From: Actinomycetota bacterium
GTDB taxonomy: Bacteria > Margulisbacteria > Marinamargulisbacteria > GCA-2716485
Direction: 5' to 3'
Assembly (NCBI GenBank): GCA_002716485.1
Contig: PBBE01000047.1
Span: forward strand, 1 to 47,644
DNA length: 47,644 nt
The stretch's first letter is position 1; the number at the start of each line of letters is the position of its first letter. The notes below the pieces were generated by a model that was not told where the DNA came from, searched no databases, and was given only the letters and a program-made list of their open reading frames with translations. Both the position numbers and the translations under genes were made by a program. This document shows positions 25,601 to 43,008 of this stretch, piece by piece.

Positions 25601-27987
25601 ATCACTTTGGTGACCCGACGATGATTGGTCGGTCTTTGTTGGCTTATTATGGGTTGGTAGGGATTTGGAAGATTCCTTTAAGAGAGACAGCCCCTGGTTT
25701 GGAGAAGGCATTTCGTAATTTGATGTTTGCAGGGCAACCTAGTTACGCTGTTATATGCTTGATATTTTCATTTTTGAATCAATTTTTTGTGGGGGTCAAG
25801 GTGCCCTTGTTATCGCAGCATTTAGCGCGTATTTTTGGGTATTTGAAGGGGATGGGGGTTTCTCTTGAATCGACTTCAGAGGTTCCTGATGAGCCAATGT
25901 CGTCTAGTATGAGCTTGATTAAAGTAGATGGGACCTTAGTGGATGATTTAAATATGTATCACAAATTTGTTCAGGTTTTAGCGGGTGGTGGTGGCCATTT
26001 TGATGAAATAAATCAAATTGATTTTAAACAATTAGATGATCGTTTTGACGATGGGTCACCGGTAGGCGTCTTTATGATGGTTTTTTGCTTTTTTGATAGT
26101 CAATATGAAAAGGGGCTTGAGATTGGGGATCAGCTTTGGCGTATGATTAAAGATCGTCATTTGGCGGTTATTTATCCGTTGTATATCTATTATTATAGTT
26201 TATTGATTTATCAAGGCTTTCAGGGTGCAAGCCTAAGACGGAAATGGATTTATCGACGACGTTTGTCTTATATTGTGAAACTTTATGATGGGTTTCAAGA
26301 TCGCTGTCCCGAAAATTTTCGGACGATTTATTTGTTTTTGGATGCCAAGTTATCGCATTTGAGATCTCCTTCATTTAACACAGTTCGTTATTTTAATGAG
26401 GCCGTGAGTTTGGCCATTCAAGATCAGATGCCCCATGTGGCAGGCTTGTGTCATCAAGCATTAGCGGATATTTATGAAGAAGAAGGGGTGTACCATTTGG
26501 CGTATACTCATTTAAATGAGGCTGTTCATTATTATTCGAATTGGGGCTTGAGTTTGGGGGTTCAAGAGATGAAGCTTAAGGTTGAATCATTGTATGAAAA
26601 ATGTAATTTATCTAAAGGGTTTATGCTTAATTTTTCTCAAGGGCTGGATTTTAAACGTTTGATTAATGCGAGTCAGTCTTTATCTCAAGAGACGAATTGT
26701 AAGGCCTTATTAGAGCAATTATTGAAGGTGGCCATGGAAAGTGCGGGAGCACAAAAGGCGGTTATTATTCTAAAGAAAGGAACTGATTTTTTTGTGGAAG
26801 CATCCTTTGATCCGAAGGACAATCAGATGAAGGTGTTTCAATCGGTTCCGATTCAGTCGGCGGATATGTTACCGAAGTCTTTGATTCAGTATGTTATTTT
26901 TACTAAAACCAAATTGCTGATTCATAACGCGGAGGGGCATAAGTTATTTCGGACGGATCCGTATGTGATTCAGAATGAACCGAAGTCGGTCTTATGTTTG
27001 CCTATTTTTAAACAGGTGGCATTAACAGGAGTGTTGTATCTTGAAAATAACTTGGTTTTTGATGGGTTTTCTGAAGATTCCTTACAGGTGTTAGAGGTGA
27101 TTGTCTCTCAAGCCGCTATTTCTATTGAAAATGCAGTTTTACATGAGCAGAACCAAGATTTAATTCATAACTTAGAGGACCGGGTTTCGTCTCAAATTAA
27201 GCAAACGCAGATAGCTGAACAGGAAAAAAACCAGAGTTTGAAAATGGTGAAAAAAGTATCAGAGCATTCGGCTTATGCGACTTTGACTAGAGGAATAGCT
27301 CATGAGATTCGCAATCCGATGGGGCTTATTTTATCGGGAATGGAATTAATTTTGGATAATATTCATGATAAAGAGTTGGTTCAAACGTATGCTCAATCTG
27401 TGAAGCAGAGCATGTTGCAGTTGTCGAGTATTACAACGAATATGCTTAACTATGGGACCCCGGTTTCGGACAAACGAGTCAATATGTCGATTAATGAGTT
27501 GATCAAAGATGCGTTAATGATGGCACGAACAGAGTGTAAGAAACGACGAATTGTGGTGAAAACGATTTTTAGAGAGGTTCCTGATGTGTATGTGGATACG
27601 AATAGTATTAGTCAGGCGTTTTTAAATATACTATTAAATGCGATTGAGGCCATTGATATGAATGGTGAAATTCAAATAGAAACCTTTGAGAGTCAGTGGG
27701 TTAATGCGTCTGGTCAACAAGTGGAAGGGGTGAAAGTGTTGGTTCAAGATTCTGGAAAAGGGATTCCTCAAGATATCTTAGATGAGATCTATGACCCGTT
27801 TTTTACTACAAAACATCAAAATGTAGGATTAGGACTTTCTCTGGTATTAAAAACAATAAGAGAGCATGAGGGGTTAATTGATGTGATTTCAAATGATGCA
27901 GGCTTGACGTCGTTTATTTTGCATTTACCTAGACAAGGTATTATAGAAGGGCGACGTGAGGAGGCCCTTTCTCTTTCAGTTAAGTAG
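22696..27987 (+). CDS. Multidomain sensor: degenerate Ser/Thr kinase, AAA ATPase, TPR-like region, GAF and histidine kinase (HstK-like)
   Basis: YCAPERTQRL and RSDFYALG kinase subdomains; P-loop GEKGAGKT; KTHGNPHY; GAF region (PKSVLCLPI, GVLYLENN); H-box IAHEIRNPM; N-box NAIEA; DSGKGI; FFTTK; GLGL. Confidence 0.92.
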   Translation: MIVEEKFLEGIHEKYELLSYQGRRVLERHFLSSDVALLQHFMKESGVLKALTERVEGVFLEHCPTGGFDKKMMFYLPEKGLSLGQLLSKGPMSMSDFYAFILPLLSRLKKVYGADFFHGNLNPNTIIVDSESFESYFFSVSFYAESEQAVPFYMALGKSILAYCAPERTQRLTLPYDHRSDFYALGCLIYECLTGTCLFDFEKPEEMVFAHLTQSPRELFGLKGKVPDYFSPMLLKIIEKLLHKDPHQRYQDIDSLIYDISQTQRLASTVSFPLDTQGKYRNVVLSDQYYGHQKEKDQMVSIYKNSLKNYPQLVLVEGEKGAGKTRFAHSILHGAFKPYPFIVLVSLQPKNQEVPYFGLTKLLEQLVFKLISQTNEQEIEEIRPQLHSISDENVALLMQLCSSYSALLEFFELDTKVTQSTQVANFGHAVVQFLSVVSLVKPLVFIFDGLEFADEATIRFISQSLVVLNDRPVTFVGTIGDEVLAEGNLVYSVLVQPSKTMYDYHLLKLSLLTVRDIKAFIKDTFHYRVERLDELAAIIIQKTHGNPHYIRQSVSFLLKEGYFKYLTESSIWKWSSEQVKSIKVADSAVNLLLGQYRSYSDDIRLLVQYAACFKDSFTMQQMASLLGFSNDVLIQYLLTLIDDNILVMVNQSIYLLSSRTLREQSYVLEQASFDFSNPKISAFIYDQVAAQERSEVHFRIGKLLLGQQDQLDEMFAEYKIVKHFNLSDRAYLDKSLARQLVNLNLLAGQKSKAAGHYQKALVYFDFALKFLDALHDEWDQPLCFSILLERVRCLYFSVGYEAALDAISQASEYSMSRLDKATVLMEQLFVEIEQNYFRKATETAYEMLRHCGVYLPKIKAVIILFLILEAQKIKRFIHLPIETDLVLDPQQSRRLELMFRGFELLNTSVHLVNNELFALSSLKLLSASYQMGGSANSASGLTMYSFWLTTQHKLDEAFTFSEKAIDISNHFGDPTMIGRSLLAYYGLVGIWKIPLRETAPGLEKAFRNLMFAGQPSYAVICLIFSFLNQFFVGVKVPLLSQHLARIFGYLKGMGVSLESTSEVPDEPMSSSMSLIKVDGTLVDDLNMYHKFVQVLAGGGGHFDEINQIDFKQLDDRFDDGSPVGVFMMVFCFFDSQYEKGLEIGDQLWRMIKDRHLAVIYPLYIYYYSLLIYQGFQGASLRRKWIYRRRLSYIVKLYDGFQDRCPENFRTIYLFLDAKLSHLRSPSFNTVRYFNEAVSLAIQDQMPHVAGLCHQALADIYEEEGVYHLAYTHLNEAVHYYSNWGLSLGVQEMKLKVESLYEKCNLSKGFMLNFSQGLDFKRLINASQSLSQETNCKALLEQLLKVAMESAGAQKAVIILKKGTDFFVEASFDPKDNQMKVFQSVPIQSADMLPKSLIQYVIFTKTKLLIHNAEGHKLFRTDPYVIQNEPKSVLCLPIFKQVALTGVLYLENNLVFDGFSEDSLQVLEVIVSQAAISIENAVLHEQNQDLIHNLEDRVSSQIKQTQIAEQEKNQSLKMVKKVSEHSAYATLTRGIAHEIRNPMGLILSGMELILDNIHDKELVQTYAQSVKQSMLQLSSITTNMLNYGTPVSDKRVNMSINELIKDALMMARTECKKRRIVVKTIFREVPDVYVDTNSISQAFLNILLNAIEAIDMNGEIQIETFESQWVNASGQQVEGVKVLVQDSGKGIPQDILDEIYDPFFTTKHQNVGLGLSLVLKTIREHEGLIDVISNDAGLTSFILHLPRQGIIEGRREEALSLSVK

Positions 27988-30348: not shown

Positions 30349-31257
30349 TTGGGCAAGCTTTTTTCGTTAGGATTGCCGATTGACTGGGATCAATATTGTC
30401 TTAGGGTGTACGTTCGTTTGATGTTACTGGGATGCCTGATGGTCTTGGGTTTGCCATTGGAAGGCGTTGCTCAAGGGAAGCTTGATTTAATATTTTTGTC
30501 ACCAAAATCGGCTTGGTCTGAAACGACCCGAAGTAAGGTGTTGTTTAAGGGCCAAGCGACGAATATTATACGGCTTAAAATTGGGGACGATTGGGTTTCT
30601 TTGGATAAAGAGGGTAAGTTTTATAAGACGGTGACCTTGCCTGAAGAGCCAGGGCGATTCCAAGTGAAAGTGTTGGGAGTGGGCCGTTCAAAGCAGACCT
30701 TGTTAAAATTATTTGATATTGATCGGCTTTTATCATTAAAAGAACAGGAGTTTTTAATGTATGCCCAGGAACAAATTTTTAATCAAGTTGAATTAATGGG
30801 ATGGAAACCAGTGCCATTATTGCCATTATTTAGAGAGTATTTAACCACACAAGCGGTATCTTTTATTTTATCTTCGAATTTAAGAAGGGGCATTGAAGAG
30901 GAAGAGGTTCAGCTTCAGATTAGTAAAATGATGCAATATTTAAAGGTGTTTCGTTTGGGCACTTCGGCGATTTTTGCGATACCTTGGAGCAATAATTATA
31001 TACCGATTCAAGGGGTGGTTCCTTTTTTGGCACAAACTTTTTATGACTCACACTATGATGGTTTTACTGATTTTAGTGTGTTGATTTATAATCAGCCAAT
31101 GTCGGTACTTGAGGTTTTTTTTGCTAAAGTCAAAAAAAGGGGGGTGGTGCCTGTGTTATGGACCTTAGATGCGGGGCCTATCTCAAAACGTTTTGGGGGG
31201 CCTAGTGTGAAGAAATTAAAGCGATTTCAGCAGCAACGATTGGTGATTACTCAATAA
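30349..31257 (+). CDS. Hypothetical exported/membrane protein with an N-terminal Ig-like domain
   Basis: Hydrophobic N-terminus, then a beta-rich segment (LSPK..VLFKG..VSLDKEGKFYKTVTL); start uncertain; convergent on the motor operon with a 12-bp gap. Confidence 0.6.
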   Translation: MGKLFSLGLPIDWDQYCLRVYVRLMLLGCLMVLGLPLEGVAQGKLDLIFLSPKSAWSETTRSKVLFKGQATNIIRLKIGDDWVSLDKEGKFYKTVTLPEEPGRFQVKVLGVGRSKQTLLKLFDIDRLLSLKEQEFLMYAQEQIFNQVELMGWKPVPLLPLFREYLTTQAVSFILSSNLRRGIEEEEVQLQISKMMQYLKVFRLGTSAIFAIPWSNNYIPIQGVVPFLAQTFYDSHYDGFTDFSVLIYNQPMSVLEVFFAKVKKRGVVPVLWTLDAGPISKRFGGPSVKKLKRFQQQRLVITQ

Positions 31258-31269
31258 TAGTAATGGCTG

Positions 31270-32463
31270 TTACTTTGCTAATAGTTCTATTACTTCTTTG
31301 TTGTTTGGATCGATTTCAATGGCACGTTGCCAACTATCAAAGGCCAAGTCTTCCAGTCCTAATTCATAATAAATGGAGCCAAGCCGGATATATAGTAGTG
31401 GTTGGGTAGGGTCAATTTGGATGGCTTGATTTAACTTGTTAAGTGCCATTTGGTAGCGTTTTTGTGAATAGTATTTGAATGAGTCAGAATAAAGGGCCAT
31501 GACTTTGCCGCTTTGCTTAGGTGCGACTTCAAATGGGAGGTCATGTTTTTTTCTGGGCCTCATTTCTTCTATTTTACTGGCCAATTGGGTTTTAAATCCA
31601 TCTACATCTTTTAATAAAGTGAGCCGTAATTTTTCAAGTTCATCCAATTCACCTTGGTATTGGTGCCATAAGTCTTCGATTTTATTGCCTAGTTTTTGGT
31701 ATTTTTTTTCATAGGCTTCAATTTCAGCACGTTGGTTTGAATAGGCGGATTTCATGCTGTTTTTTAGGGTGAATCCTACCGTTAGGTATCGGGAGGGGGC
31801 GTTATTATATTCCTCGTTGGCATCGCCTGAATGAGAAAGCTCGGTGAGGGCGATATTAATTTCAGTTTCTTTAGACGCATGAAACCGGTATCCAAAGTTG
31901 AAATCTTTGGTGTCATGTTCGAATATAATGGCGCCATTAAAAATATTGATTTCAAAGGCATAATAGAGACCGTTGCTGGTACTGATGCTTTTGATGGAGC
32001 TGAATTCTCGTTTGCCAAACCCGATATGTAGCCTTGAAAAGGGCGGTCCGAAATAAGTGGTTAAATAGGGGGAATAAAAATTTTCTTTTCCGGGACTCAC
32101 ATCGATCTTATTAGAACGGCTTGAGAGTTGTTTTTGGTTGCTAATATTTGCAATTCCGCCGGAGGCACCCACTAATTTTTTCATAAAAAAGTTCCAATGG
32201 ATATTAGCTGCAAATTGTTGGGGGCTTAAAATGGTGATGCCCGCTTTTATTTTTTCAGTGAGGCAGTAATTGAGCATCAGGTCAAATTCATGGGAGTAAT
32301 CTCGACTTAGTGCAAAAATCGTGCTTAGTTCAATGTCTCCACTTTGATGGGCTTTAGTCCCTGGAACATTGATTAAACTGGATGGGTAATGAAAGGCAGT
32401 GCTATAAACGGGGGTGTTTAAAAGACTGATGATAAAAATAAAGGTTCCGAGAATAATTCTCAT
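31270..32463 (-). CDS. Putative outer-membrane beta-barrel (YjbH-like) + coiled coil + C-terminal TPR protein, paralog 2
   Basis: Signal peptide, SLINVPGT motif, amphipathic strands (EHDTKDFNFGYRF, YLTVGFTL), heptad-rich segment and TPR pair with RLGSIYYELG...WQRAIEIDPNN. Confidence 0.7.
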   Translation of the reverse strand: MRIILGTFIFIISLLNTPVYSTAFHYPSSLINVPGTKAHQSGDIELSTIFALSRDYSHEFDLMLNYCLTEKIKAGITILSPQQFAANIHWNFFMKKLVGASGGIANISNQKQLSSRSNKIDVSPGKENFYSPYLTTYFGPPFSRLHIGFGKREFSSIKSISTSNGLYYAFEINIFNGAIIFEHDTKDFNFGYRFHASKETEINIALTELSHSGDANEEYNNAPSRYLTVGFTLKNSMKSAYSNQRAEIEAYEKKYQKLGNKIEDLWHQYQGELDELEKLRLTLLKDVDGFKTQLASKIEEMRPRKKHDLPFEVAPKQSGKVMALYSDSFKYYSQKRYQMALNKLNQAIQIDPTQPLLYIRLGSIYYELGLEDLAFDSWQRAIEIDPNNKEVIELLAK

Positions 32464-32465
32464 GA

Positions 32466-33758
32466 TTAGTTGCTAATGGCTTTATTTGGGCTAATAGGGG
32501 CTTGTTGGGGGATTGTTTCTGTTTTGTTTTGTGGGGTATCTTTTTTTTCTTTGGTTTTTTTTTGGGTTTTTTTTGATTCTCTGATTAGTTCTTTTTTGAT
32601 TTGTTTGAGATAGTTTACGATGTCTTTGTTTTTGGGATCAATTCGTAGGGCCATTTTCCATGCTGCTTTTGCCTTCTTATAATCTTTAAGTTTGAAGTAA
32701 ATGGAGCCAAGTCGGGTAAAGCCAACTGCAGAATTGGGGACGATTTTGACCACATTTAAGTATTCTTTTAAGGCATTTTGGTAGTCTTCATCATAGTAAA
32801 ACTCAAGGCCTCGCTGCATATGGACAAAGGCCCGTTTACTTGGATAACTTTCTTTGGGAAGGCCATCTTTTTCAAATGCGTCGGATAGGGTTTCTTCTAG
32901 GTCTTTTAGAAAGCCGGTTTGTTTGATAAGTTGATGGGTTTTTTCCACATCTTCTAGATTGTTTAGTCGAGTGTCGATATTATCGTAAGTTGAATTGAAT
33001 TCTTGACGTCCTACTAATAGGTCAGTGAGGCTATCTAAGACATTGCTGGCATAACTGACGCCGAATGAAAATAATCGTATTTCATGGCTAGGGTCTAATA
33101 TTTTGGGTCTTGCCGCCGTCCATGTTAAATAAATACGGGCTTTTTTTAGGTTGTATTTAAGACCAAGATTCGGAGAAAACCCGTCATATTCGGCAATAAT
33201 GGTTCCAAAGAGCATGCTTTTTTCAAAACCGCCTACAACACGTGTGATATTGGGTCTAATTCGATCAGAGGCGATTCCAATATGATAATTAGAGTTAAAT
33301 TTTAGTGATGAAATGGAGTAGATTGCAAATAAGTTCATAATGGGAATATTAGGAGCAGAGTCAATTTGCGGGATACTTCCCCAGCCTAGGTTTTTGAGAC
33401 CAATTCCAATATTATGTTGGATGGTTTTTTTTCTGTTTTGTCTTACAAATGGGGCGAAGTGAAAGCTATGAAGGGTATTCATGGTGTCTTGGACATTAAG
33501 GTTATATTCAAAGCGATCGGATAGTGCCCAGCGTAAATAAAATAATGTTCTAAAATAGACGGTGGCAGAGTCCGGGGTTTTGGCTCGGTAATCAAACATG
33601 GCACCATATTCAGTAAACCCCATTTTTTCCATTTTGGCAGAGGGGACTGTGATGAGGTCGTTTGATCCGGAAAAGCCAAATAGAAGCCCGTTTGAAAAGC
33701 CCCAAAATAGACTTAATAAAATGATAAGTTGTGGCTTAATGCGCATGTTGATCATCAT
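32466..33758 (-). CDS. Putative outer-membrane beta-barrel (YjbH-like) + coiled coil + C-terminal TPR protein, paralog 1
   Basis: Signal peptide, DLITVPSA motif, strands (EYDGFSPNLGLKY, FSFGVSY), coiled coil (IDTRLNNLE) and TPR pair with RLGSIYFKLK...WKMALRIDPKN. Confidence 0.7.
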   Translation of the reverse strand: MMINMRIKPQLIILLSLFWGFSNGLLFGFSGSNDLITVPSAKMEKMGFTEYGAMFDYRAKTPDSATVYFRTLFYLRWALSDRFEYNLNVQDTMNTLHSFHFAPFVRQNRKKTIQHNIGIGLKNLGWGSIPQIDSAPNIPIMNLFAIYSISSLKFNSNYHIGIASDRIRPNITRVVGGFEKSMLFGTIIAEYDGFSPNLGLKYNLKKARIYLTWTAARPKILDPSHEIRLFSFGVSYASNVLDSLTDLLVGRQEFNSTYDNIDTRLNNLEDVEKTHQLIKQTGFLKDLEETLSDAFEKDGLPKESYPSKRAFVHMQRGLEFYYDEDYQNALKEYLNVVKIVPNSAVGFTRLGSIYFKLKDYKKAKAAWKMALRIDPKNKDIVNYLKQIKKELIRESKKTQKKTKEKKDTPQNKTETIPQQAPISPNKAISN

Positions 33759-34257
33759 TTAAGGGGTCAAACTTATGGCATATATGAATAAGGCCTAACT
33801 CTTTTTGGTTAAGGGTACATTGGATTTGAGCGACTTGTAGTTGTTGGTCAGGAAAAAAGCATTGGCATTGTTCTTTTTTGGTTTCGCAGCGAGTAAGCTC
33901 GACGGGCTTATTGAGCTTAAGATAGAGTTGTTTAGTATCTTGGGACAGTTGAGATGAGAACAGGGATTCACTTGATGTTAAAATGTGTTCGGGTCGTTTA
34001 GTTACAATGCCATCACCTCCTAACATTCGGTCTGCTAATGCATAGATAATAGGGAGGTCAAAATTAAATAGAATGGGTTGGTTGTTTTCTTCAAATAATA
34101 GGGTGAAATTAAAGTCAGGTAATTGCTCTAGGAGGACATTAAAGGGCTGGTGCTTAAATTCAATATGAGTCATTTGAATCGAAATTTTGAGCTGTGATGC
34201 GATATGATCAGATAAGTTGAGTGCAAGTTGTTTATAAAATGGCTCAAATTGTGTCAT
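33736..34257 (-). CDS. fliM: FliM-like protein, middle (CheC-like) domain only
   Basis: FDLPIIYALADRMLGGDG...LTSSE matches the FliM GGxG region. It is 173 aa, with no LSQxEIDxLL N-terminus and no SpoA tail. Confidence 0.7.
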   Translation of the reverse strand: MTQFEPFYKQLALNLSDHIASQLKISIQMTHIEFKHQPFNVLLEQLPDFNFTLLFEENNQPILFNFDLPIIYALADRMLGGDGIVTKRPEHILTSSESLFSSQLSQDTKQLYLKLNKPVELTRCETKKEQCQCFFPDQQLQVAQIQCTLNQKELGLIHICHKFDPLNDDQHAH

Positions 34258-34274
34258 TGGACGTCCTTCCTATG

Positions 34275-34928
34275 TTATTGTACCGTTTCTTTAACGAGAA
34301 TGCTAATACGGCGGTTATTGGCTCTGTTTTGTTTGGAGGTATTCGGTGCAATTGGTTTGGTATCTGCATACCCAGTTACACGAAGACGGTGTGAGTTAAT
34401 TTTAGATTGAATTAGTCGTCTGGCTACGGCAGATGCTCTGGCAGCAGATAGTTCCCAATTAGATGGATAGATATCGGATTGGATGGGAATATTATCGGTA
34501 TGACCTTCAATAATAATTTGGCCGTTACTTTGTTGAAGAAGATGGCTGATTTTAATTAATATTTTGGAGGTGTTTGTTTTTATGCTGGCTTTACCCGAGT
34601 CAAATAATATTTCTGAACCTAGATTAATACGGATATTTTGGGGGGTTTGGATGATTTCAATATCATTTTCAAGTTGGTTTTCTATAATATAGGCATTTAG
34701 TGTATCGCTAATGTCTTGGAGTTGTTTTTGCTGATTTAAAAGGTCATTGAATGGGGAGTCGTTATTGTTGCTGAATGTATTGCTTAATGACGCTTGTGAT
34801 TCAATATATTTTCCGATATCGATTTCAGAAATAGAGTATAAATAAATGAAAAAGACGAGTAATAGAGTTAATAAGTCTGCCCAGCAGACAATAAAATGAT
34901 TTTTAGGTTGCTCGTTTAATTCATTCAT
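34275..34928 (-). CDS. motB: Stator B subunit (MotB/PomB-like, OmpA-type peptidoglycan-binding domain)
   Basis: WADLLTLLLVFF TM with the conserved Asp; EGHTDNIP, SNWELSAARA, GYADTKP and NRRISI motifs. Confidence 0.93.
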   Translation of the reverse strand: MNELNEQPKNHFIVCWADLLTLLLVFFIYLYSISEIDIGKYIESQASLSNTFSNNNDSPFNDLLNQQKQLQDISDTLNAYIIENQLENDIEIIQTPQNIRINLGSEILFDSGKASIKTNTSKILIKISHLLQQSNGQIIIEGHTDNIPIQSDIYPSNWELSAARASAVARRLIQSKINSHRLRVTGYADTKPIAPNTSKQNRANNRRISILVKETVQ

Positions 34929-35695
34929 TTGTTTGGTTTGAGCTTTTTACGCTCTTTTTCGGGTAGGCACATGGACATTTTTTCATAGATCATATAATTG
35001 GTCTCTTTTTGGGCAATGCAGATGATGCCTTCTAAGAGCATTTTCTTTTGGATTAGTTCTTCATTACTTGCAATTCGTAGACGACCTGATAGGGGTTGAA
35101 AAATGAGGTTCGCCAATAGGATGCCATAGAATGTTGTAATCAATGCGATGGCCATGTTAGGACCAATCGTCTCAGGGCTTTCTAGTTCTGACAGTAAGTT
35201 AATCAGTCCAATTAATGTGCCAATAAATCCGAATCCTGGAGCATATTGGGCCATTTGCTCAAAAAAATGGATACCTTGGTTATGTCGAGACTGGATAAAG
35301 TCAATATTTTTTTCTAAGATGGGAACTAATTCTTTGACGGGGATATTATCAATGAGTAGTTGAAGACCATGTTTTAAATAATGGTCTTGGGTTTTTTTGA
35401 CGGTTTTTTCGAGAGATAAGCGGCCATTTTTTTTGTAGTTAGTGGCGATTTCGCTCATGTGTTTGATGTCTTGTAAGTAGTCTCTGCCTCGTGGCGAGAA
35501 AATAACTTTTAACCGGCCACCAATTCGAAATAGCTGGGTTAATGGGAAATGGACGAGGGTGGCACCGAAAGTGCCGCCCATGACAATTAGAAATGAGGTT
35601 GGATGTACAAATAAATGGATTCCTTTTTCGATGCCAATGGCTTGAATAATGAGCCCGCAACCTAATAATACGCCTAAAAATGCGGTGATGTCCAT
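34925..35695 (-). CDS. motA: Stator A subunit (MotA/PomA-like)
   Basis: SFLIVMGGTFGA, GRLSLE, APGFGFIGTLIGLI and IGPNMAIALITTFYG motifs; AGGGAG RBS. Confidence 0.95.
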   Translation of the reverse strand: MDITAFLGVLLGCGLIIQAIGIEKGIHLFVHPTSFLIVMGGTFGATLVHFPLTQLFRIGGRLKVIFSPRGRDYLQDIKHMSEIATNYKKNGRLSLEKTVKKTQDHYLKHGLQLLIDNIPVKELVPILEKNIDFIQSRHNQGIHFFEQMAQYAPGFGFIGTLIGLINLLSELESPETIGPNMAIALITTFYGILLANLIFQPLSGRLRIASNEELIQKKMLLEGIICIAQKETNYMIYEKMSMCLPEKERKKLKPNK

Positions 35696-35699
35696 GTGC

Positions 35700-36698
35700 T
35701 TACTCCCTTTTTTCGATTAGTTCTGATAATGGGTTGACTTTGTTGTTTCGTTCGAGTTCACGTGCTGTTTGAATAATATTTTTTTGGGCGATTTTGGCAT
35801 CATTTTCATTGAGCTCTTTGGGCAAGTTACTGATTTCTTCTTCTAACATGAACTTAAGTCGTTCGGAGAGGTTTTCTAGAATTCTATTTTTCACGTTGAT
35901 ATTAGAAATACTAAGGGCTGCTGCTAAGGTGCTTAATGGATCAATAGCGTATAGTAGACTTTGAAGATCTTTATCAGATAGATTGATTAAGTCTCCAAAT
36001 TCAAGCATATAGGATTTGATTTTTTGACTGGCTTCTTGGTCGCTTTGTTCAAAGTGGGTCATAATTGCACTCATATGTTCAGGGTTCATCACTTCGAGAC
36101 TTAAGGATAATTTGAGGTATGGATCTGTGCTTTCTTTGCTCACTTTTTCTTTTAATAATTGGTCTTTGAGGTGATGATGGATCTTCCAAGCCAAGCTAAT
36201 ATTGGGGATGTCTATTTTGAGTAGTTTTGAGGTGATGAGAATACTGATGTCTTTTTCAAATTGGGATAATAGTTGGGCCATTTTGTCTTCCGGTAAAAAA
36301 GAGCAAATAAGGGCGCTTAGTTGCGGTGGTTCATTTAATAAAAATTGGGTGAGCTTTTCATTATCAACTTGGTTAAGAAAGTGGAATAATTGGTCACTTT
36401 TTTCAAATAATGACGCATGGGAAATATCTGGAAATGATTGTTCAAAGAGATGGCTGGGGAGTAGTTCACCACCAAAGTGGGATCGCTTTCCGTTTAATAG
36501 GGTATGAAATTCTTCGATAATTGGTGAGGAGATATCTTCTTTAATATGTCCTAACTTTGACATGCTTTGTAGGAGTTGGGTGCTTTGTGTTTTTCCCAGT
36601 TTATTGAGTACTTCATGGGTTACCCCTGGGGACTCGACCTCTAAAGATAAGAGCAAGATGGCTGCTTTTTGGATAGGGGTATAGGTATCATCATTCAT
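35700..36698 (-). CDS. fliG: Rotor protein FliG (divergent)
   Basis: QKAAILLLSL, the GG linker, EPPQ (EHPQ-like), MLEFGDL (MFxFEDL-like) and torque helix NLSERLKFMLEEE. Start set at 36698 after an AGGAG RBS. Confidence 0.9.
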   Translation of the reverse strand: MNDDTYTPIQKAAILLLSLEVESPGVTHEVLNKLGKTQSTQLLQSMSKLGHIKEDISSPIIEEFHTLLNGKRSHFGGELLPSHLFEQSFPDISHASLFEKSDQLFHFLNQVDNEKLTQFLLNEPPQLSALICSFLPEDKMAQLLSQFEKDISILITSKLLKIDIPNISLAWKIHHHLKDQLLKEKVSKESTDPYLKLSLSLEVMNPEHMSAIMTHFEQSDQEASQKIKSYMLEFGDLINLSDKDLQSLLYAIDPLSTLAAALSISNINVKNRILENLSERLKFMLEEEISNLPKELNENDAKIAQKNIIQTARELERNNKVNPLSELIEKRE

Positions 36699-37788
36699 TA
36701 TTGATGTCTCCTTCTTGTTCTTGGTCTTTAATCCAGCCCATAATGGTGTGGGCAACTGCTTCTGGTTTTTTTAATGAGATATTGGCCAGTTCTTTTCGTT
36801 TCTGTTTAAAAAGTCGTAGTTGTCGTTTTGCTTCTAGAGCTGCTTTTTTTTGAGCGTCTTCTTGTTTTTTTAAAATGGCTGCTTTTTTTTCTTTGATTTG
36901 ACGTCGAAGAAATAGTCCTAGTTTTGTTAGAAAGTAGAGAAGTAAGAGTAATATGCTAGTAATAAATAATTTGAAGTCTTGAGCGGCAATAAAAGATTTA
37001 GTGGTATCAAAAAAGGGTTTATGTCGGGCAAGAAAGCGTTGGATAATAAATAAGGGGCCTTGAAATGGGGTGTATTGGATGTCGAGTTGGTCTTGTCGTG
37101 TAGGGTTAAATCCTGAGATTGATTGGATAAGTGATTTTAAAGTGTCGGTGTCAATGGGGATTAGTTGTGTGGAAGCGCTATCAAGTAAAATTTGGATTTG
37201 CATTTGTTGGATTATGTTTTTGGGGCTGGAAATAGTTTCATTGGTTTCATTGTAGTAAATGGATTCAATCTTTTCGGAGATACTGGTATTTACCTTTTGT
37301 ATTTTTTCTTTGGGGATGCTTGGTTTAATACTTTCGACGACGACGCCAGGAAAGCCTGGTAGTGCGGATTCATTACTTTGACGTTGGGTAATGAGCCCAG
37401 GAAGTTTAAGTCCGTCTTTATAGAGCTGTTGTAACATTTGAGCAGATTGTCTAAGCGGGACCTGGGGAATGATATCACCATTTAGTTTTTGTTGGCGTTG
37501 GGTAATGATTCGATTTGGGGTTAGTTCTTTAGATTTTTGGATACGATGTTCGGGGATATCTAAGTTAACGGCGATGATAAAGGCAGTTTCAGGATAGAAT
37601 TTTTTGAGTAGTAGATGGATGTCTCCTTTAATTTTAAGGCTTTGTCGTTCTGGAAATGATAGGGATTGATGGGGGCGACGCTCAGATAGCCAGTTAGTGA
37701 TTTTATTGGGGGTTCTGAATAGAAAAAAGGTCCCCAAGAGGATGGCGATAATCAGGATGGGTAAATAAGGTGATTTATGTGTCGTCAT
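36691..37788 (-). CDS. fliF: FliF-like MS-ring protein, RBM3/C-terminal half only
   Basis: TM1, then RBM3-like segments (LLLKKFYPETAFIIAVNLDI; IIQQMQIQILLD; LIQSISGFNPTRQDQLDIQYTPF), TM2 and a FliG-binding tail KPEAVAHTIMGWI. Start set at MTTHK (37788). Confidence 0.75.
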   Translation of the reverse strand: MTTHKSPYLPILIIAILLGTFFLFRTPNKITNWLSERRPHQSLSFPERQSLKIKGDIHLLLKKFYPETAFIIAVNLDIPEHRIQKSKELTPNRIITQRQQKLNGDIIPQVPLRQSAQMLQQLYKDGLKLPGLITQRQSNESALPGFPGVVVESIKPSIPKEKIQKVNTSISEKIESIYYNETNETISSPKNIIQQMQIQILLDSASTQLIPIDTDTLKSLIQSISGFNPTRQDQLDIQYTPFQGPLFIIQRFLARHKPFFDTTKSFIAAQDFKLFITSILLLLLYFLTKLGLFLRRQIKEKKAAILKKQEDAQKKAALEAKRQLRLFKQKRKELANISLKKPEAVAHTIMGWIKDQEQEGDINNE

Positions 37789-39073
37789 TAGTTTTAAAAA
37801 TTTGGATTCGGTTATTACCAGAATCAACGACATATAAGGTGCGGGCACTACTATCATAGTGTAATTGACGAGGGAATTTAAACTCACCTGTATCGCTGCC
37901 TTCTTGGCCCCAGTTGGCAACGTGAAGGCCGGTTCTTATATCAAATATTTGGATACGATGATTAAACGTGTCTGAAACGTATAGATGGTGGTTGGCGCTA
38001 TCTATGGCCATGCCTTCTGGGCTTTTGATATTGCCTGTACTGGTACCATATTTAATTGTATTAAATTGGGTGAGCTCATTATTGCTTAATCGTTGTACAA
38101 TACTTAATTCTTTGTTGACGATGTAGACATCGTTATCATAATGGGCCAGATCATAGGCAAATAAGGTGGCGTTACTGTCTTGGAATGAGCTTGTGGGGCC
38201 AGTGTGGATCCGGTGGTCATCGAGGCTGCTATAGACCACCGATGTGAGATTGCTTGGGTTGGCTCTGACGGCAATGGGGTTATCTAGATTGTTGATCGGG
38301 ATAAAGGGATCTCCACTTTCTCCCCAATTATCAGGGTCAAATTTGATGATACGGTTATTACCAGAATCAGCGACCCAGATTCTGCTCCCGTCATAGGTGA
38401 GTCCTCGGGGATATCTAAATTGAAACTCGCCAGACCCTGCAGTGCCATAGGTGGCCATTAAGCTGCCAGAGGGGGCATATTTTTGGATTCGAGAGTTTAG
38501 GGTGTCTGATACATAAATATTTTTGTTGCTATCTAGGGTAATGCCCGTGGGATGGATGAGTGCGTCATTGGGGGTAATATTGAGTTGATGGGACATAAAT
38601 CCGGTATATTTGAGTGCTTTGGGTGAGGATGATGAAAATGTGTAATTTCTAGTTGAAATGGCTTGTAAAATAAAATTATAAGTAGTAAAGCCTTCACTTA
38701 ACTTTTGCTCAAGGATATATTGGTATATGATGGCATTGTTAATGGAAATATTTTCAGTGATAATTAGTAGGTCTTGGTTGTTTTTATTAGGTTCAACAGG
38801 GAATTGTTGGATGTATTGGTAGGGCTGGGTGCTTCCTTCGGTTTTGAAAGCCAATTTGTAATGGTCTACATTTTCGGGGTTATTGATAATCCATTTGATG
38901 GTAATAAATTGGGTGGCTTTATCGAGTTCGATTGATGAGATCATTGGAATGCTTTGAAAATCGTCAAATTTAACAGTGGCGGTTAAATTATCGATGGGGC
39001 TGGATGTGCAGCCGATAATCAGGCCTAAGCAAAGAAGGATTGTACTGACTTCGATATGCAGCCTTTTGATCAT
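37775..39073 (-). CDS. Lipoprotein with an FN3-like domain and an NHL-repeat beta-propeller
   Basis: Lipobox LIIG-C; NHL repeats (PTGITLDSNKNIYVSDTLNSRIQK, PRGL..WVADSGNNRI, PEGMAID..YVSDTFNHRIQ, YVVDSGNNRIQ). Confidence 0.88.
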   Translation of the reverse strand: MIKRLHIEVSTILLCLGLIIGCTSSPIDNLTATVKFDDFQSIPMISSIELDKATQFITIKWIINNPENVDHYKLAFKTEGSTQPYQYIQQFPVEPNKNNQDLLIITENISINNAIIYQYILEQKLSEGFTTYNFILQAISTRNYTFSSSSPKALKYTGFMSHQLNITPNDALIHPTGITLDSNKNIYVSDTLNSRIQKYAPSGSLMATYGTAGSGEFQFRYPRGLTYDGSRIWVADSGNNRIIKFDPDNWGESGDPFIPINNLDNPIAVRANPSNLTSVVYSSLDDHRIHTGPTSSFQDSNATLFAYDLAHYDNDVYIVNKELSIVQRLSNNELTQFNTIKYGTSTGNIKSPEGMAIDSANHHLYVSDTFNHRIQIFDIRTGLHVANWGQEGSDTGEFKFPRQLHYDSSARTLYVVDSGNNRIQIFKTNDDT

Positions 39074-40917
39074 CGACTTAGCCTTTCTAGTTCATTTTTT
39101 AAGGCAATATTCTCTGATTTAAGGGCATTAATTTCGCTTTGTTGGGCTTTAATAGATTCAATGATAAGACCGATTAATGGCGTCATGTTCAATGTTTTAT
39201 ATCCGCTGGGATCGGTGCCTACTAGGTTTGGGTAAATATCTTCGACATTTTGGGCGATTAAACCGATTTGGCTGCCCTCTGGAAAGGACCGTTCGGGAAA
39301 CTCGTCTTGACGCCATTCATAAGTGACCCCATTGAGTTCAGAAAGGGAAGCTATGGGAGTTGAAATGGCCTTGATCTCTTTTTTTAAGCGCCGATCAGAT
39401 GGTGTGCTGAGTGCCATTCCGGGGGTTCCTGCCATAAAGGTGGTGCCAGTGACATGTAAGTCGCCGGTGATCTTAATGCCGGCACCGTAGTCATTGATTT
39501 TTCCTAATTCTAAATTGGTTCTGGCTGCTTCTGCAGTGGTGCCGCCGGTACCTCCCTTGCTTATGGCAATGATGGGGAGACGGTTGGCAGGGACCTCTTG
39601 GGCGTAGGTGGTGGTGATATTGGTATTGCTTAAATTGGTCATGGTGGCTGTTCCTGTAATATCACCAGTAAGTGTAATAACGGGATCATTGACATCAAAG
39701 CTTAGTGTTTTATTGGGATGGCTGCCAGCGCCATCTATAGAAATGCCATTCTCTGTATTGTCATTGACCATTTTGATTACTTCGTCTCTTACTTCATTTC
39801 CATTTAATCCGCCACCAGCCCCGGCGGGAACGTTAGATAGCCAGTTGTAGTGGATTCGACCGGCGCCTGTTGGCTCATCATCAAGGTCAACTTTTTTATA
39901 AAACGTATTTTCAGTATAGCTTGTAATGGCTTTTTCAGTAGGAATTGCGCTATCACTATTTCCTGTAAAGGTGGCATCACTACTGAACTCGTTGACTGGA
40001 ACCCCTGAGTTAAGGAGAAGTGTGCCTTTGACTTCAAGGGTTTCACTGGGATTGGTGGTATTAATACCGACATTGCCTTTATTATAGAAAATTTCATTGG
40101 CTTCACTGCCGTCTTCCCAGCGCCCTGCATTTTCGTCCACATAGGTTTTGATGGCTTTTTCAGTGGGAATACTGTTGTCACTATTGCCAGCAAGGGAGGT
40201 ATCGGTACTAAAGTTGTTAATCGCGGTTCCAGAATTTAAAAGAAGGGACCCGTTCTTGATATGAAGTTTCTCGGTTGGGTTGGTGATGCCAACGCCTACA
40301 TTGCCAGAGAGATAATAAATTTCATCGCTGTCATCACGCTCTTTCCATTTTCCACCGTTTTCTTTGATGTATTCGACAATGGCCAATTGGGATGCAATTT
40401 TATTATCACTTGGATTGGTAAAGGTGATGTCGGTACTTAGTGCTTGGATTTCGTTACCATTGTTAATTGTAATGCTTTTAACCTTAATGGATTGCTCGTT
40501 ACCAAATAATGATGGGACTAGGTCAATTGCATAGGGGGCGGCTGTGAGTGAGTGGGTTAGGGGGATGGTTACTTGGTCAATGGTATAGGACTCCGCCCCT
40601 TCGATGCTAAATTGCAAGTTTGGGGTGGGGATATCAAGTAGGTTTGGGGTTAAAGGGGTGCTATGTCCCAAGGTAAGATCAGCATGGCCATCCACAAAAG
40701 AGACCCCAATTAATGTTTCACTCCAAGCGGTTGCGGTGGTATCTGAAAATAGTGCGATTTTCACTCGCTTGTAGCCGTTAATAGGGCCGTTTTGGTCAGA
40801 AAGGTTTAATGTGATGGGGATGACTTTGGATGCCGCTATGATAGGGCTGCTATTTTTAATTAATAGGCCGGAGATAAGGGCGCTCCAAATAAGTATTTGA
40901 AAGAAATAGCGTTTCAT
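39070..40917 (-). CDS. Secreted trimeric fibre/adhesin with a C-terminal peptidase S74 intramolecular chaperone
   Basis: Signal peptide; GNVGVGITNP and GNVGINTTNP repeats; tail-fibre motifs (ITLTGDITG, KGGTGGTTAEAARTNL); SDRRLKKEI...GVTYEW...IGLIAQNVE and a terminal coiled coil. Confidence 0.88.
   Translation of the reverse strand: MKRYFFQILIWSALISGLLIKNSSPIIAASKVIPITLNLSDQNGPINGYKRVKIALFSDTTATAWSETLIGVSFVDGHADLTLGHSTPLTPNLLDIPTPNLQFSIEGAESYTIDQVTIPLTHSLTAAPYAIDLVPSLFGNEQSIKVKSITINNGNEIQALSTDITFTNPSDNKIASQLAIVEYIKENGGKWKERDDSDEIYYLSGNVGVGITNPTEKLHIKNGSLLLNSGTAINNFSTDTSLAGNSDNSIPTEKAIKTYVDENAGRWEDGSEANEIFYNKGNVGINTTNPSETLEVKGTLLLNSGVPVNEFSSDATFTGNSDSAIPTEKAITSYTENTFYKKVDLDDEPTGAGRIHYNWLSNVPAGAGGGLNGNEVRDEVIKMVNDNTENGISIDGAGSHPNKTLSFDVNDPVITLTGDITGTATMTNLSNTNITTTYAQEVPANRLPIIAISKGGTGGTTAEAARTNLELGKINDYGAGIKITGDLHVTGTTFMAGTPGMALSTPSDRRLKKEIKAISTPIASLSELNGVTYEWRQDEFPERSFPEGSQIGLIAQNVEDIYPNLVGTDPSGYKTLNMTPLIGLIIESIKAQQSEINALKSENIALKNELERLSR
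39907..40443 (-). repeat. Internal protein repeat of about 76 aa (about 2.3 copies) in the fibre gene
   Basis: LSTDITFTNPSDNKIASQLAIVEYI / FSTDTSLAGNSDNSIPTEKAIKTYV / FSSDATFTGNSDSAIPTEKAITSYT; the first two are followed by W..EI.Y..GNVG....P...L...LLLNSG. Confidence 0.8.
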
Positions 40918-41010
40918 TGAAGTTGGGTCCTAAATACTTGTGATTTTGATATAGACGGGCTCCTTTATTCTATCCTTTTTATGGCCTGGAGTCCAATTTT
41001 TAAGCGACTA

Positions 41011-41937
41011 CTAGGTCTTTTTTTTAAGTGACCAATGTAATGAAAACAGGTGGGACTGGGGGACTTGAGGATGGCTGTTGGGTAAGAATGCGTATTGGAG
41101 TTGGAGTTGATTTAGATTAAGACTTAGCCCGGTACTTGCTTGTATGAGGTCTAGGTTATGGTGTTGGGAATATCCAAAATATATCGATAGGAGCGAGACT
41201 TGTGTGGGATGTAAAATGATGCCTAGTGCGCTGATCATGGCGTTTCGGGTGGGGTGGCTTTTGGTTTGGCTTCTGATGCTAAAGTGTCTGGATTGGAATT
41301 GATGGCTGATGATGATTTGGGTGGGGTAGTGGGCGCTGATGCGTTGGTTTTGGTAGTTTTGATGGAAAGGGTGCTTTATCAGGTGATTAATAATCAGGGA
41401 ATAGTGATGGGCGGATTGGGTCCAATATGCGCCGATGCCAGCATTGATATTATTGAATATATTCTGGTCGATTTCAGTGCGAATCCAAGATGTTTTGAGA
41501 CCGAGGTAAGCATGGGGAGATAGGCGGGTAGCGATGATATGGTTGAGTTCTAGGTGTTGATAATGAAAGCTGTGGTGAATGATTGGGTAGTCATTGATCA
41601 GGGTGCTGTGGTGTAACTGCGAGACACTGGTTTTCATTAGGCCGATTCCCATGGGGATGTTTTTGAATGGGAACGTGCTCGCGAATTGTTGGTACTGGAT
41701 TTCGTTTAGGATACGGGTGTTAAATAAGGAAAAGGATGGCGATTTGATACGCCCAATTGTGGCTGGGTTTCCGAAGACGCTGCTGGCATGATCTGAAAAG
41801 CCTTGGATGTTGCCGCTGCCGATCATTTTGGCACTATTGCCCAAGTGACTGGCTAAAAATGATTGGCTTTGCTTGCCCCAACTGGGGCTGCTTAGGAGTA
41901 GGAGTATTATAGCGAAGGTAGGGCGTTTATTGATCAT
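41011..41937 (-). CDS. PorV/PorQ (FadL-fold)-like outer-membrane beta-barrel
   Basis: Signal peptide; N-terminal plug motif GNSAKMIGSGN...DHASSVFGNPATI (similar to GARaxgMG...NPAgL); C-terminal LQYAF...HLFSLHW. Confidence 0.65.
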   Translation of the reverse strand: MINKRPTFAIILLLLSSPSWGKQSQSFLASHLGNSAKMIGSGNIQGFSDHASSVFGNPATIGRIKSPSFSLFNTRILNEIQYQQFASTFPFKNIPMGIGLMKTSVSQLHHSTLINDYPIIHHSFHYQHLELNHIIATRLSPHAYLGLKTSWIRTEIDQNIFNNINAGIGAYWTQSAHHYSLIINHLIKHPFHQNYQNQRISAHYPTQIIISHQFQSRHFSIRSQTKSHPTRNAMISALGIILHPTQVSLLSIYFGYSQHHNLDLIQASTGLSLNLNQLQLQYAFLPNSHPQVPQSHLFSLHWSLKKKT

Positions 41938-42545
41938 GGGAGGCTTACCATTTTACCTTTACCAAGGATGGTTTTTTTAGTTGAAATTAGATAAAAATAA
42001 ATGGCGCTACTTAACGCGCTATTGGGGAGTGATTTTTTGGAAAAAGAAAAGGTATTGATCCCAGATTTTCCGCCGCTTTCTCCTGATGAGAACTGGGCCT
42101 GGTAGACCCGCTGGCCACTCATATCATAAATGTCGATGTTAATATCTGCGTTTTGGTTTAAGTGATAGTAGAGGGTGGTGCCAGAATTGATTCGGAATGG
42201 GTTGGGGTAATTTAAGGGGGCTTTTTCAAGTTGGATGGGGGCAATATCTTCATGAATCACTTCATCACTGCTGCTGTGTTGGTTGGCAGGGGGCTTGGCT
42301 TGTGAGTGTGGCATGTTAAAGGTATTGGGATGACTGGTGATGGTTCCGTAGATGGGTGTATCCATGAGGGTGTGTTGGCTTTGGTGTTGGCGTTTAAAAA
42401 GGGGTTCTTTTGCGGTGGTGTTGGTGATGGGGCTACATAAGCAAAGGATTAGTATCCCTTGGAAGAGTCGGGTTGATCGTTTAATTAGGAAGAGGTTTTG
42501 TTTCATTCTAGTTTTATTATTGACGATTAGGATAGGGAAATACAA
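41934..42545 (-). CDS. Small exported protein consisting mainly of a T9SS type-A-CTD/FlgD-Ig-like domain
   Basis: NYPNPF...TTLYYHL...INIDIYDMSGQRV...LSSAIYFYLI...GKGKMV. The true start may be 42506 (MKQNL). ATGA overlap with the next gene. Confidence 0.75.
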   Translation of the reverse strand: MYFPILIVNNKTRMKQNLFLIKRSTRLFQGILILCLCSPITNTTAKEPLFKRQHQSQHTLMDTPIYGTITSHPNTFNMPHSQAKPPANQHSSSDEVIHEDIAPIQLEKAPLNYPNPFRINSGTTLYYHLNQNADINIDIYDMSGQRVYQAQFSSGESGGKSGINTFSFSKKSLPNSALSSAIYFYLISTKKTILGKGKMVSLP

Positions 42546-42651
42546 GTCTGAATTTAGGTGTTTAAGTGGAGTGAAGAATTGATTGTTGAGCCTGGATGGG
42601 GTATACTGGTGGTATATTTATTTTCAAGTAGTTTTTATAAGGAGGTGGCTT

Positions 42652-43008
42652 ATGACACAATTTTCAGTGACTCAGTCTTATAATGAGGCCTTTTCTTCGG
42701 ATGTTCTTCAGATTCAAGGGGAGCTTGATGTTCATACTTGTCCGATGGTGAAAGAGAAAGCAGAAGTTATTTTAGATGCTTCGCCTAGTAAGTTGGTGTT
42801 GGATTTGGATCAGACCAGTTATATTGATTCTACAGGGTTAGGTGTGATTGTATATATGGCCAAGCAGATGGCGGATCAATCAGGCACTGTATATGTCTTG
42901 ACGTCGCAGCCTCAAATACGTAAAGTGTATGAAGTGTCTGGGATAGGTCGGCAGAATATTCATTTAGTGGCAGACCAAGAGGAGCTGCTTCGTGTTAGCA
43001 CCGTCTAA
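42652..43008 (+). CDS. rsbV: Anti-sigma factor antagonist (STAS domain)
   Basis: GELDVHTCP and YIDSTGLG phospho-Ser motif; AAGGAGGT RBS sets the start at 42652. Confidence 0.9.
   Translation: MTQFSVTQSYNEAFSSDVLQIQGELDVHTCPMVKEKAEVILDASPSKLVLDLDQTSYIDSTGLGVIVYMAKQMADQSGTVYVLTSQPQIRKVYEVSGIGRQNIHLVADQEELLRVSTV

Follow-up and report, generated by a model that had tools for sequence, protein, structure and literature searches.

The stretch of DNA analyzed here, called the window throughout, is the whole of contig PBBE01000047.1 (C47; 47,644 nt) of assembly GCA_002716485.1, a marine Margulisbacteria genome of 1.4 Mb in 59 contigs with a completeness of 56%. Positions 31270–42545 of the window are filled by eleven minus-strand open reading frames (ORFs), which in the order of reading encode a protein with a C-terminal sorting domain (the CTD protein), a PorV-like barrel, an S74 fiber protein, an NHL-repeat protein, a short FliF paralog (FliF-like), FliG, MotA, MotB, a FliM-like protein and two proteins, bTPR1 and bTPR2, in which a predicted outer-membrane barrel is followed by a coiled coil and a TPR unit. 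The original prediction, made from the sequence of this locus, had described eleven co-directional genes that overlap or lie at most 17 bp apart except at one 93-bp gap; both the gene run and its junctions are confirmed, and most of the genes had been correctly named. Judged from their linkage across genomes, the last seven genes (FliF-like, FliG, MotA, MotB, FliM-like and the two bTPR genes) are a conserved unit, which we term module A. Within it FliF-like and FliG overlap (by 8 bp given a FliG start at 36698), MotA begins 4 bp after FliG, MotA and MotB overlap by 4 bp, a 17-bp gap separates MotB from the FliM-like gene, the latter overlaps bTPR1, and bTPR1 and bTPR2 are 2 bp apart.

The conservation of this unit is evident from the loci around FliF-like or FliM-like matches in 16 other genomes from three classes, which we compared by BLASTP and with hidden Markov models (HMMs) derived from alignments. 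The FliF-like, FliG and FliM-like genes and both bTPR genes share one locus in all 16 of these genomes, and MotA and MotB are found in the same locus in 9 of the 16. The exact seven-gene order recurs in the closest relative examined (G005) and, beyond the window's class, in three genomes (G068, G063 and G057), and four further genomes (G032, G022, G016 and G002) keep the seven-gene linkage with the order shuffled. Three genomes encode FliF-like and FliG as a single fusion protein (674 residues in G038, 669 in the second locus of G032 and 824 in G019); among the 150 matches to the FliF-like profile that were listed, 5 are 663–676 residues long, the length of such fusions. With the short FliM as a marker, the module is detected in 24 of the 55 genomes from the window's class and in 30 of the 146 from the phylum; the remaining 116, among them G004 (95% complete) and G025 (97% complete), gave no match to the marker. 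The claim of a minimal flagellar-type rotor and stator set tightly linked to barrel proteins is therefore borne out, with the two bTPR genes beside FliF-like, FliG and FliM-like in 16/16 loci, and this is the part of the original prediction that stands; its fiber and type IX secretion system (T9SS)-like parts, which are not syntenic with the motor genes in relatives, do not.

The FliF-like gene (36691..37920, minus strand), which probably starts at the ATG at 37788, where its relatives also begin in the alignment, encodes a short FliF paralog with a YscJ_FliF_C match of 34.1 bits (cut-off 23.8). The protein is laid out as a first transmembrane helix, a periplasmic ring domain of the RBM3/collar type, a second transmembrane helix, a charged linker and a C-terminal helix of the FliG-binding type, and an alignment of relatives reveals an invariant LPGFP motif in a disordered loop of the periplasmic part. 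A profile of the family matches residues 231–558 of Salmonella FliF (6scn_A) with an E value of 3e-13, a span that contains the RBM3/collar region, the second membrane helix and the FliG-binding tail, and the C-terminal helix, KPxxxAxxLxxWV, aligns with that tail. The AlphaFold2 model has a predicted local distance difference test score (pLDDT) of 62 overall and of 80–89 in the core, and its top 18 matches in Foldseek are all RBM3/S-ring chains of FliF, the next match having an E value of 0.07. RBM1 and RBM2 (PF01514) are absent from the protein, there being no Pfam match in its N-terminal part and the profile match starting at FliF residue 231; in a genome-wide search PF01514 matches contig C5 only, where a long FliF is encoded. 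Since RBM1/RBM2 surrounds the export gate in flagella, the FliF-like protein would present no socket for such a gate.

FliG (35700..36755, minus strand; probable start 36698) is a full-length paralog with N, M and C domains that all score over their cut-offs (FliG_N, PF14842, 47.5 bits; FliG_M, PF14841, 37 bits; FliG_C, PF01706, 80 bits), and its score against the canonical equivalog model TIGR00207 is 104.3 bits, below the cut-off of 226.7. The charged residues of the torque helix are present: across 8 sequences S297, R299 and E306 are invariant within the pattern S-x-R-x6-E-E, as are Q145 and A148 of an EHPQ-type motif. Among the charged residues of E. coli FliG that face MotA, PMC12505986 names R281 and D288/D289, and R299 and E306 lie in the region that holds these residues, a correspondence drawn by eye without an E. 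coli alignment. In a FastTree analysis of the FliG M and C domains, 18 module-A FliGs and one other sequence are split from the canonical FliGs and the other paralogs with a Shimodaira–Hasegawa-like support of 0.972; the tree is unrooted, comprises 42 sequences that all come from Margulisbacteria, uses an alignment to an HMM derived from module-A sequences, and gives the module-A side itself a support of only 0.55. By this measure the module-A FliG is separate from the canonical FliG of flagellated relatives.

The FliM-like gene (33736..34257, minus strand) encodes a 173-residue protein that consists of the FliM middle domain only. Its Pfam FliM match of 26.0 bits falls just below the cut-off of 27, and as a single sequence it retrieved nothing from the PDB; a profile of 10 sequences succeeded, matching the FliM middle domains of H. 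pylori (5x0z_E and 4fq0_B) with E values of about 3e-8 over positions 4–167 of 172. The LGGxG motif of this CheC-like domain is conserved (G80, G81 and G83). A FliN-like C-terminal domain (no PF01052 match) and the N-terminal CheY-binding segment are both absent from the protein, PF01052 being found instead on contig C58 of the same genome.

MotA (34925..35695, minus strand) is a stator A subunit of the MotA/PomA type, with a MotA_ExbB match of 87.4 bits, above the cut-off. Its best NCBIfam models are MotP (196 bits), MotA (183 bits) and PomA (179 bits), all under their equivalog cut-offs; TolQ reaches only 18 bits, MotA_N scores 21 bits (cut-off 27.3), and the protein is 62% identical to the copy in the closest relative. 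MotB (34275..34928, minus strand) carries a plug (MotB_plug, 42.2 bits), a transmembrane aspartate and an OmpA-like peptidoglycan-binding domain (OmpA, 76.5 bits), both matches being above the cut-offs, and the aspartate, D18, is invariant across 10 sequences. The criteria for a flagellar-type ('FIT') stator given in PMC12505986 include a B subunit with a plug, an OmpA-like domain and a channel aspartate, and an A subunit in which the cytoplasmic torque-generating interface is expanded and a square fold is present. By the B-subunit criteria stated in that source, and as far as its sequence goes, MotB is a flagellar-type B subunit.

bTPR1 (32466..33758, minus strand) has a signal peptide, a 12-strand outer-membrane barrel, a long helix and a TPR unit, as indicated by TPR matches in Pfam and by an AlphaFold2 model (pLDDT 78.6) in which the strands occupy residues 48–239, the helix 240–280 and the TPR unit 306–406. 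When residues 25–238 were compared with known 12-strand outer-membrane barrels using VIA-align, the matches were EstA (Z 16.5), NalP (15.8), FapF (15.1) and NanC (14.6), so that the barrel resembles those of the autotransporter, FapF, NanC and KdgM type at Z 14–16.5. The barrel–coiled-coil–TPR architecture proposed from the translation is thereby upheld. bTPR2 (31270..32463, minus strand) is a paralog that shares this architecture but has a longer coiled coil, as its TPR matches and a joint alignment of 18 sequences reveal; it adjoins bTPR1 in every locus examined, and the bTPR genes are syntenic with the motor genes in 16/16 other loci. A protein homolog search with bTPR1 residues 30–245 found only bTPR1 itself, which, the search being word-based, is no evidence of uniqueness. 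Weak similarities to envelope proteins of other systems lie outside the barrel: bTPR2 matches the spirochete collar model FlcA (E 5e-5) in its TPR part only, incidental matches to GldM/PorM in the family scans (E 0.0016–0.033) fall only in the coiled-coil/TPR region of bTPR1, and the coiled-coil/TPR part matches CpoB/YbgF weakly (E 0.074). A complex prediction with the periplasmic parts of FliF-like and MotB and the coiled-coil/TPR part of bTPR1 returned a score of 0.00, which is no answer and supports no conclusion either way.

The original prediction had noted that no other flagellar, export or che gene occurs in the window, and a Pfam scan of the 29 other ORFs agrees. This holds for the window only: the wider picture of a genome without flagellar export and axial genes is wrong, as export, rod and L/P-ring genes lie on other contigs. 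Contig C58 carries a FliM–FliN fusion, a MinD/FlhG-like ATPase, FliN, FliO, FliP, FlhA and a sigma factor, together with ORFs of FliQ, FliR and FlhB size (identified by size, not by family scan). Contig C5 encodes FliK-like, FlgF-like, FlgG, FlgA, FlgH, FlgI, FlgC-like and FliE proteins, and a 601-residue long FliF with RBM1/2 that is followed by a 225-residue FliG of N and M domains only. A run on contig C35 (L011 8749–12691) consists of a 338-residue TPR protein, a 487-residue FliG-like protein, MotA and MotB; this FliG-like protein has M and C domains after some 280 unassigned residues, and the run is a second conserved set, present also in L037 and L038. A third stator locus, C56:1737–4021, holds two tandem MotA genes and then one MotB. 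Flagellin was not found in this genome. The idea that the window genes are the only motor genes of a complete flagellum was rejected, given the further FliG-like, MotAB, FliF and FliM sets on C35, C56, C5 and C58 and the canonical FliG of flagellated relatives.

FlhA was matched in 38 of the 41 relatives searched; across the phylum, 74 of the 76 genomes with a completeness of at least 90% have it. For Flagellin_N the counts are 1 of the 41 relatives, where the match lies on a contig of 2 kb, and 15 of the 146 phylum genomes; nearly all of these 15 belong to four families that have two FlhA genes each. In the window's class, five high-quality genomes have rod-type C-terminal domains in no ORF longer than 293 residues, and no axial protein of hook or junction (FlgK) size was found in them. 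Judging by these gene counts, a basal body and export apparatus of flagellar type, with no flagellin to be detected, seems to be universal in the phylum. Five genomes from three of the flagellin-bearing families (G057, G058, G063, G065 and G068) have 4–7 FliG_C proteins each, and each has a canonical FliG of 337–342 residues; in four of them (G057, G063, G065 and G068) the module-A FliG is found in addition to the canonical FliG (131–140 bits). The FliG_C ORFs of these five genomes include tandem pairs (about 500 plus about 270 residues) and single ORFs of 545–855 residues. In G004 and G025, two of the five high-quality genomes from the window's class, the only FliG_C protein is one of the C35 type, of about 480–500 residues. 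A literature search turned up neither an account of a module of this kind nor one of flagellar genes in Margulisbacteria, although supplementary gene tables could still list them; the word stem 'flagell' occurs zero times in PMC6349859 and PMC6784892, and 'Margulis' zero times in PMC13277936.

Upstream of module A lie four genes, among them those on which the fiber and T9SS-like parts of the original prediction were built. The first, 41934..42545 on the minus strand, encodes a small protein of 203 residues ending in a T9SS-type C-terminal sorting domain, which passes the cut-offs for both TIGR04183 (37.1 bits, cut-off 23) and PF18962 (27.7 bits, cut-off 27) and so has the domain expected of T9SS cargo; it is one of 3 CTD-type matches in this genome. 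It overlaps by 4 bp the gene for a putative outer-membrane barrel (41011..41937, minus strand) whose relation to the PorV/PorQ family is weak, at 33.6 bits for NF033709 (cut-off 90) and 21 bits for PorQ (cut-off 220), and which is thus not a member of the PorV shuttle family by these scores. The 93-bp gap follows, and then a fiber protein (39070..40917, minus strand) with a Sec signal and a C-terminal S74 intramolecular-chaperone domain (Peptidase_S74, 51.7 bits against a cut-off of 22, residues 507–566 of 615). This gene overlaps by 4 bp that of an NHL-repeat beta-propeller with a lipobox, LIIGC (37775..39073, minus strand; NHL 96.7 bits, above the cut-off), which in turn overlaps the FliF-like gene, by 14 bp given the ATG at 37788, and is probably co-transcribed with the module.

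In relatives these genes do not travel with the motor genes, contrary to what had been proposed for the fiber and T9SS-like components. With the window proteins as reference, BLASTP matched the S74 fiber in 0 of the 16 other loci, an NHL homolog adjoins the module in 1 of 16, a CTD protein is found in 1 of 16, and in 2 of 16, which belong to a single family, a weak PorV-family barrel lies upstream. In four genomes of the same taxonomic order (G001, G009, G011 and G012) the module is directly flanked by housekeeping genes (TGT, HemN and STAS/anti-sigma). By this distribution the NHL, S74, PorV-like and CTD genes are lineage-specific neighbors, which may be local clients of the module or mere neighbors. 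PorV-family barrels (NF033709) occur in 146 of 146 phylum genomes with 1–17 matches each, 6 of them in this genome, so that adjacency of one to the module is weak evidence and could plausibly arise by chance; in 102 of the 146 genomes at least one match is above the curated cut-off. The two loci with an upstream barrel are those of G068 and G063. In G063 the FliF-like gene is directly preceded, on its own strand, by the gene for a 1571-residue PKD/PMP protein with a T9SS-type C-terminal domain (CHU_C, 26.2 bits, just under the cut-off of 27). After this protein comes a weak PorV-family barrel (22.7 bits), which has a homolog in G068; a pairwise BLASTP comparison of the window barrel with the G063 barrel is not significant (E 0.049). 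A different envelope protein, of 803 or 877 residues and with weak similarity to outer-membrane ushers (E 1e-6), adjoins the module in G002 and G032; it is paired with a protein of 268 or 314 residues (L057 4085–7299 and L030 10727–14267), and the two pairs are mutually homologous.

The reading that we favor, at about even odds, is that module A is a conserved accessory paralog of the flagellar motor core, specific to Margulisbacteria, that has no socket for an export gate and spans to the outer membrane. In such an assembly the short FliF, which is the S-ring/collar part between two membrane helices, would form an inner-membrane ring without the RBM1/RBM2 socket for a type III export gate, and its C-terminal helix would recruit the module's own full-length FliG. 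The FliM middle-domain protein would sit under FliG through a contact of the GGxG/EHPQ type; with no FliN and no CheY-binding peptide, the resulting ring would be thin and non-switching. Flagellar-type MotA/MotB stators would push on the FliG C-domain using an ion gradient, and the two 12-strand barrels, from which a coiled coil and a TPR arm would hang into the periplasm and might dock onto the machine, would be its outer-membrane end. Rather than building a filament, the module would probably supply the outer membrane or the cell surface with energy or mechanical work. Of this picture, the domain content, conserved motifs, synteny, fusions and separateness from the canonical FliG are observed, and the formation of a ring, its rotation, the docking of the TPR arms and the output are inferred. 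The stronger form of this proposal, in which module A is an autonomous rotary machine derived from the flagellum, lacking an export gate, with an S-ring-only FliF ring turned by MotAB and coupled through the periplasm to two outer-membrane barrels, is one that we put forward tentatively, as a possibility short of an even chance; the phylum in which it would operate has an expanded complement of FliG/MotAB pairs.

Several observations weigh against a free-standing rotary motor. MotAB is absent from the locus in 7 of the 16 other genomes, and of two such genomes that are 92% complete, G001 has one MotA-size gene, which lies beside the other FliG-like gene, and G038 has none that could be found. 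The NCBIfam equivalog cut-offs are not reached for FliG, MotA or MotB, the FliM match lies just under the Pfam cut-off, and the FliG tree is subject to the restrictions given with it. The genome itself is only 56% complete. The module is found only in a phylum with a near-universal flagellar-type export apparatus, so its independence cannot be demonstrated from its distribution. Finally, in one FliF-like subfamily the periplasmic loop has an inserted SLH (cell-wall-binding) domain (33 bits in L056 and 41 bits in P0064, with P0043 just under the cut-off at 19.8 bits); these SLH-inserted proteins (L056 10509–12983, P0064 and P0043) are FliF-like/FliG fusions, and a ring bearing this loop might be anchored to the wall, in which case free rotation would not be possible.

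The distribution beside export genes leads to the rival that we weigh most seriously and nevertheless think rather unlikely, namely that module A is an extra sub-structure of the flagellin-less basal body of the phylum, such as an additional ring with a stator scaffold anchored in the outer membrane, in which the bTPR proteins would take the role of PflA/PflB, MotX/MotY/FlgT or the spirochete collar protein FlcA. Every module-A genome checked belongs to this phylum of near-universal FlhA; on C5 the long FliF is followed by a FliG of N and M domains only, so that a torque-bearing FliG C-domain must come from elsewhere; and the FlcA match of bTPR2, weak and confined to its TPR part, points the same way. 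TPR proteins beside motAB are a recurrent theme, and the parallel set of TPR protein, FliG-like protein, MotA and MotB on C35 also fits this view. Most basal-body genomes, however, are without module A (116 of 146 had no match to the marker), and the universal FliG_C partner is the FliG-like protein of about 480–500 residues, the sole FliG_C match in G004 and G025. The module's possession of its own FliF ring domain and FliG N-domain, fused in three genomes, argues for a ring of its own. That the motor parts might instead have been turned into a static scaffold or tether spanning the envelope without rotation, with an inner-membrane ring, a wall-binding loop and outer-membrane barrels bearing TPR arms, is an idea to which the SLH insertion in some FliF-like proteins, the 7/16 loci without MotAB (with no MotA-size gene found in G038) and a FliM-like protein stripped of all switching parts lend some weight; but the charges of the FliG torque helix and the channel aspartate of MotB are invariant across classes, and MotAB lies within the operon in a gene order common to three classes, which suggests an ancestral link that has been retained, and we consider a tether very improbable.

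The remaining rival is the one that the original prediction favored, in which the motor powers T9SS-like export, display or movement of CTD adhesins and the S74 fiber by way of the PorV-like barrel. It draws on the co-directional run of four upstream genes that overlaps the motor genes in the window, on a CTD domain that passes its cut-off, on the CTD-type 1571-residue protein and weak PorV-family barrel upstream of FliF-like in G063 (with the barrel homolog in G068), and on the usher-like protein beside the module in G002 and G032. Set against these are the near absence of the same genes from other loci (S74 0/16, NHL 1/16, CTD 1/16) and the housekeeping flanks seen in four genomes, the presence of PorV-family barrels in 146/146 genomes while both PorV-like matches at module loci score far below the cut-off of 90, and the GldM/PorM matches that reach only E 0.0016–0.033 in a coiled-coil/TPR region. 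SprA (PF14349) was matched in 0 of 5 genomes, a blank that is uninformative because the control was itself matched in 0 of 14. The T9SS-like part of the earlier interpretation is thus weak, and a T9SS-like role for module A seems improbable to us.

Of the known systems, the flagellar motor core (FliF MS-ring, FliG/FliM C-ring and MotA5B2 stator) is the closest, since all five cytoplasmic or inner-membrane parts of the module are homologous to it, and the pairing of the FliF C-tail with FliG_N, the FliG torque charges, the FliM GGxG motif and the MotB plug, aspartate and OmpA domain are all kept. Unlike that core, the module has a FliF without RBM1/RBM2 and a FliM without the N-terminal and FliN-like parts, lacks genes for FliN, export gate, rod, hook and filament, has two outer-membrane barrel–TPR proteins as constant partners, and co-exists with other FliF, FliG and MotAB sets and, in flagellated relatives, with a canonical FliG. 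PflA/PflB, MotX/MotY/FlgT and FlcA are periplasmic stator scaffolds, periplasmic or anchored in the inner membrane, that decorate a complete flagellum. The bTPR proteins are likewise TPR envelope proteins encoded beside motAB and plausible docking partners of a stator or ring, but their arm would hang from a 12-strand outer-membrane barrel, and the only sequence link is the weak FlcA match in the TPR part. With the motor of T9SS and gliding (GldLM/PorLM, PorKN, SprA and PorV) the module shares, in concept, an ion-driven 5:2-type motor serving the outer membrane and, in the window, an adjoining CTD-type domain and PorV-family-like barrel; its motor proteins are of the MotAB/FliG type and not GldLM, and the CTD and fiber genes are not conserved neighbors. 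Tol-Pal and TonB-ExbBD also use a MotAB-family stator to pass ion-motive energy towards the outer membrane, and the coiled coil and TPR of the bTPR proteins resemble the layout of CpoB/YbgF (the weak match at E 0.074), whereas the module has no TolA/TonB-like arm and pairs a plugged flagellar-type stator with a FliG ring. As for the barrels, the bTPR N-domain has the fold of autotransporter, FapF and NanC barrels (Z 14–16.5) and the order of OmpA, a barrel and then a periplasmic C-terminal domain, but no sequence family matches it and its periplasmic part is a coiled coil with TPR.

FliF, FliG and FliM are almost always taken as markers of a flagellum, and here three classes of a little-known phylum retain a trimmed set of the three, together with a stator and outer-membrane partners of its own. 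If the module works alone, the torque couple of FliG and MotAB would have been reused for another envelope task, as with GldLM and TolQR, and ring assembly could be studied in a naturally minimal rotor that has no secretion core. An autonomous machine of this kind would be a new type of envelope-spanning motor with its output at the outer membrane or cell surface. Further, the export and basal-body genes without detectable flagellin in most Margulisbacteria genomes affect how motility is inferred from metagenome-assembled genomes.

The remaining ORFs of the window are housekeeping, signaling and envelope genes by Pfam scan. A scan of 31000–42800 for promoters and terminators found sites no more numerous than in shuffled sequence, and operon boundaries are not informed by it. 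Regions 610–7348, 18326–22699 and 22696–27987 hold a POTRA-domain (BamA/TamA-like) protein followed by a 1677-residue ORF without a Pfam match, a 1457-residue ORF also without one, and a 1763-residue protein with kinase, AAA, GAF and histidine-kinase parts. From 1 to 46000 the GC skew of the plus strand is strongly positive in every 2-kb bin (0.14–0.44), regardless of gene strand. Convergent to bTPR2, at 30349–31257, lies the gene for a 302-residue protein without a family match; in 5 other loci a homolog of it adjoins the module, on the side of HemN.

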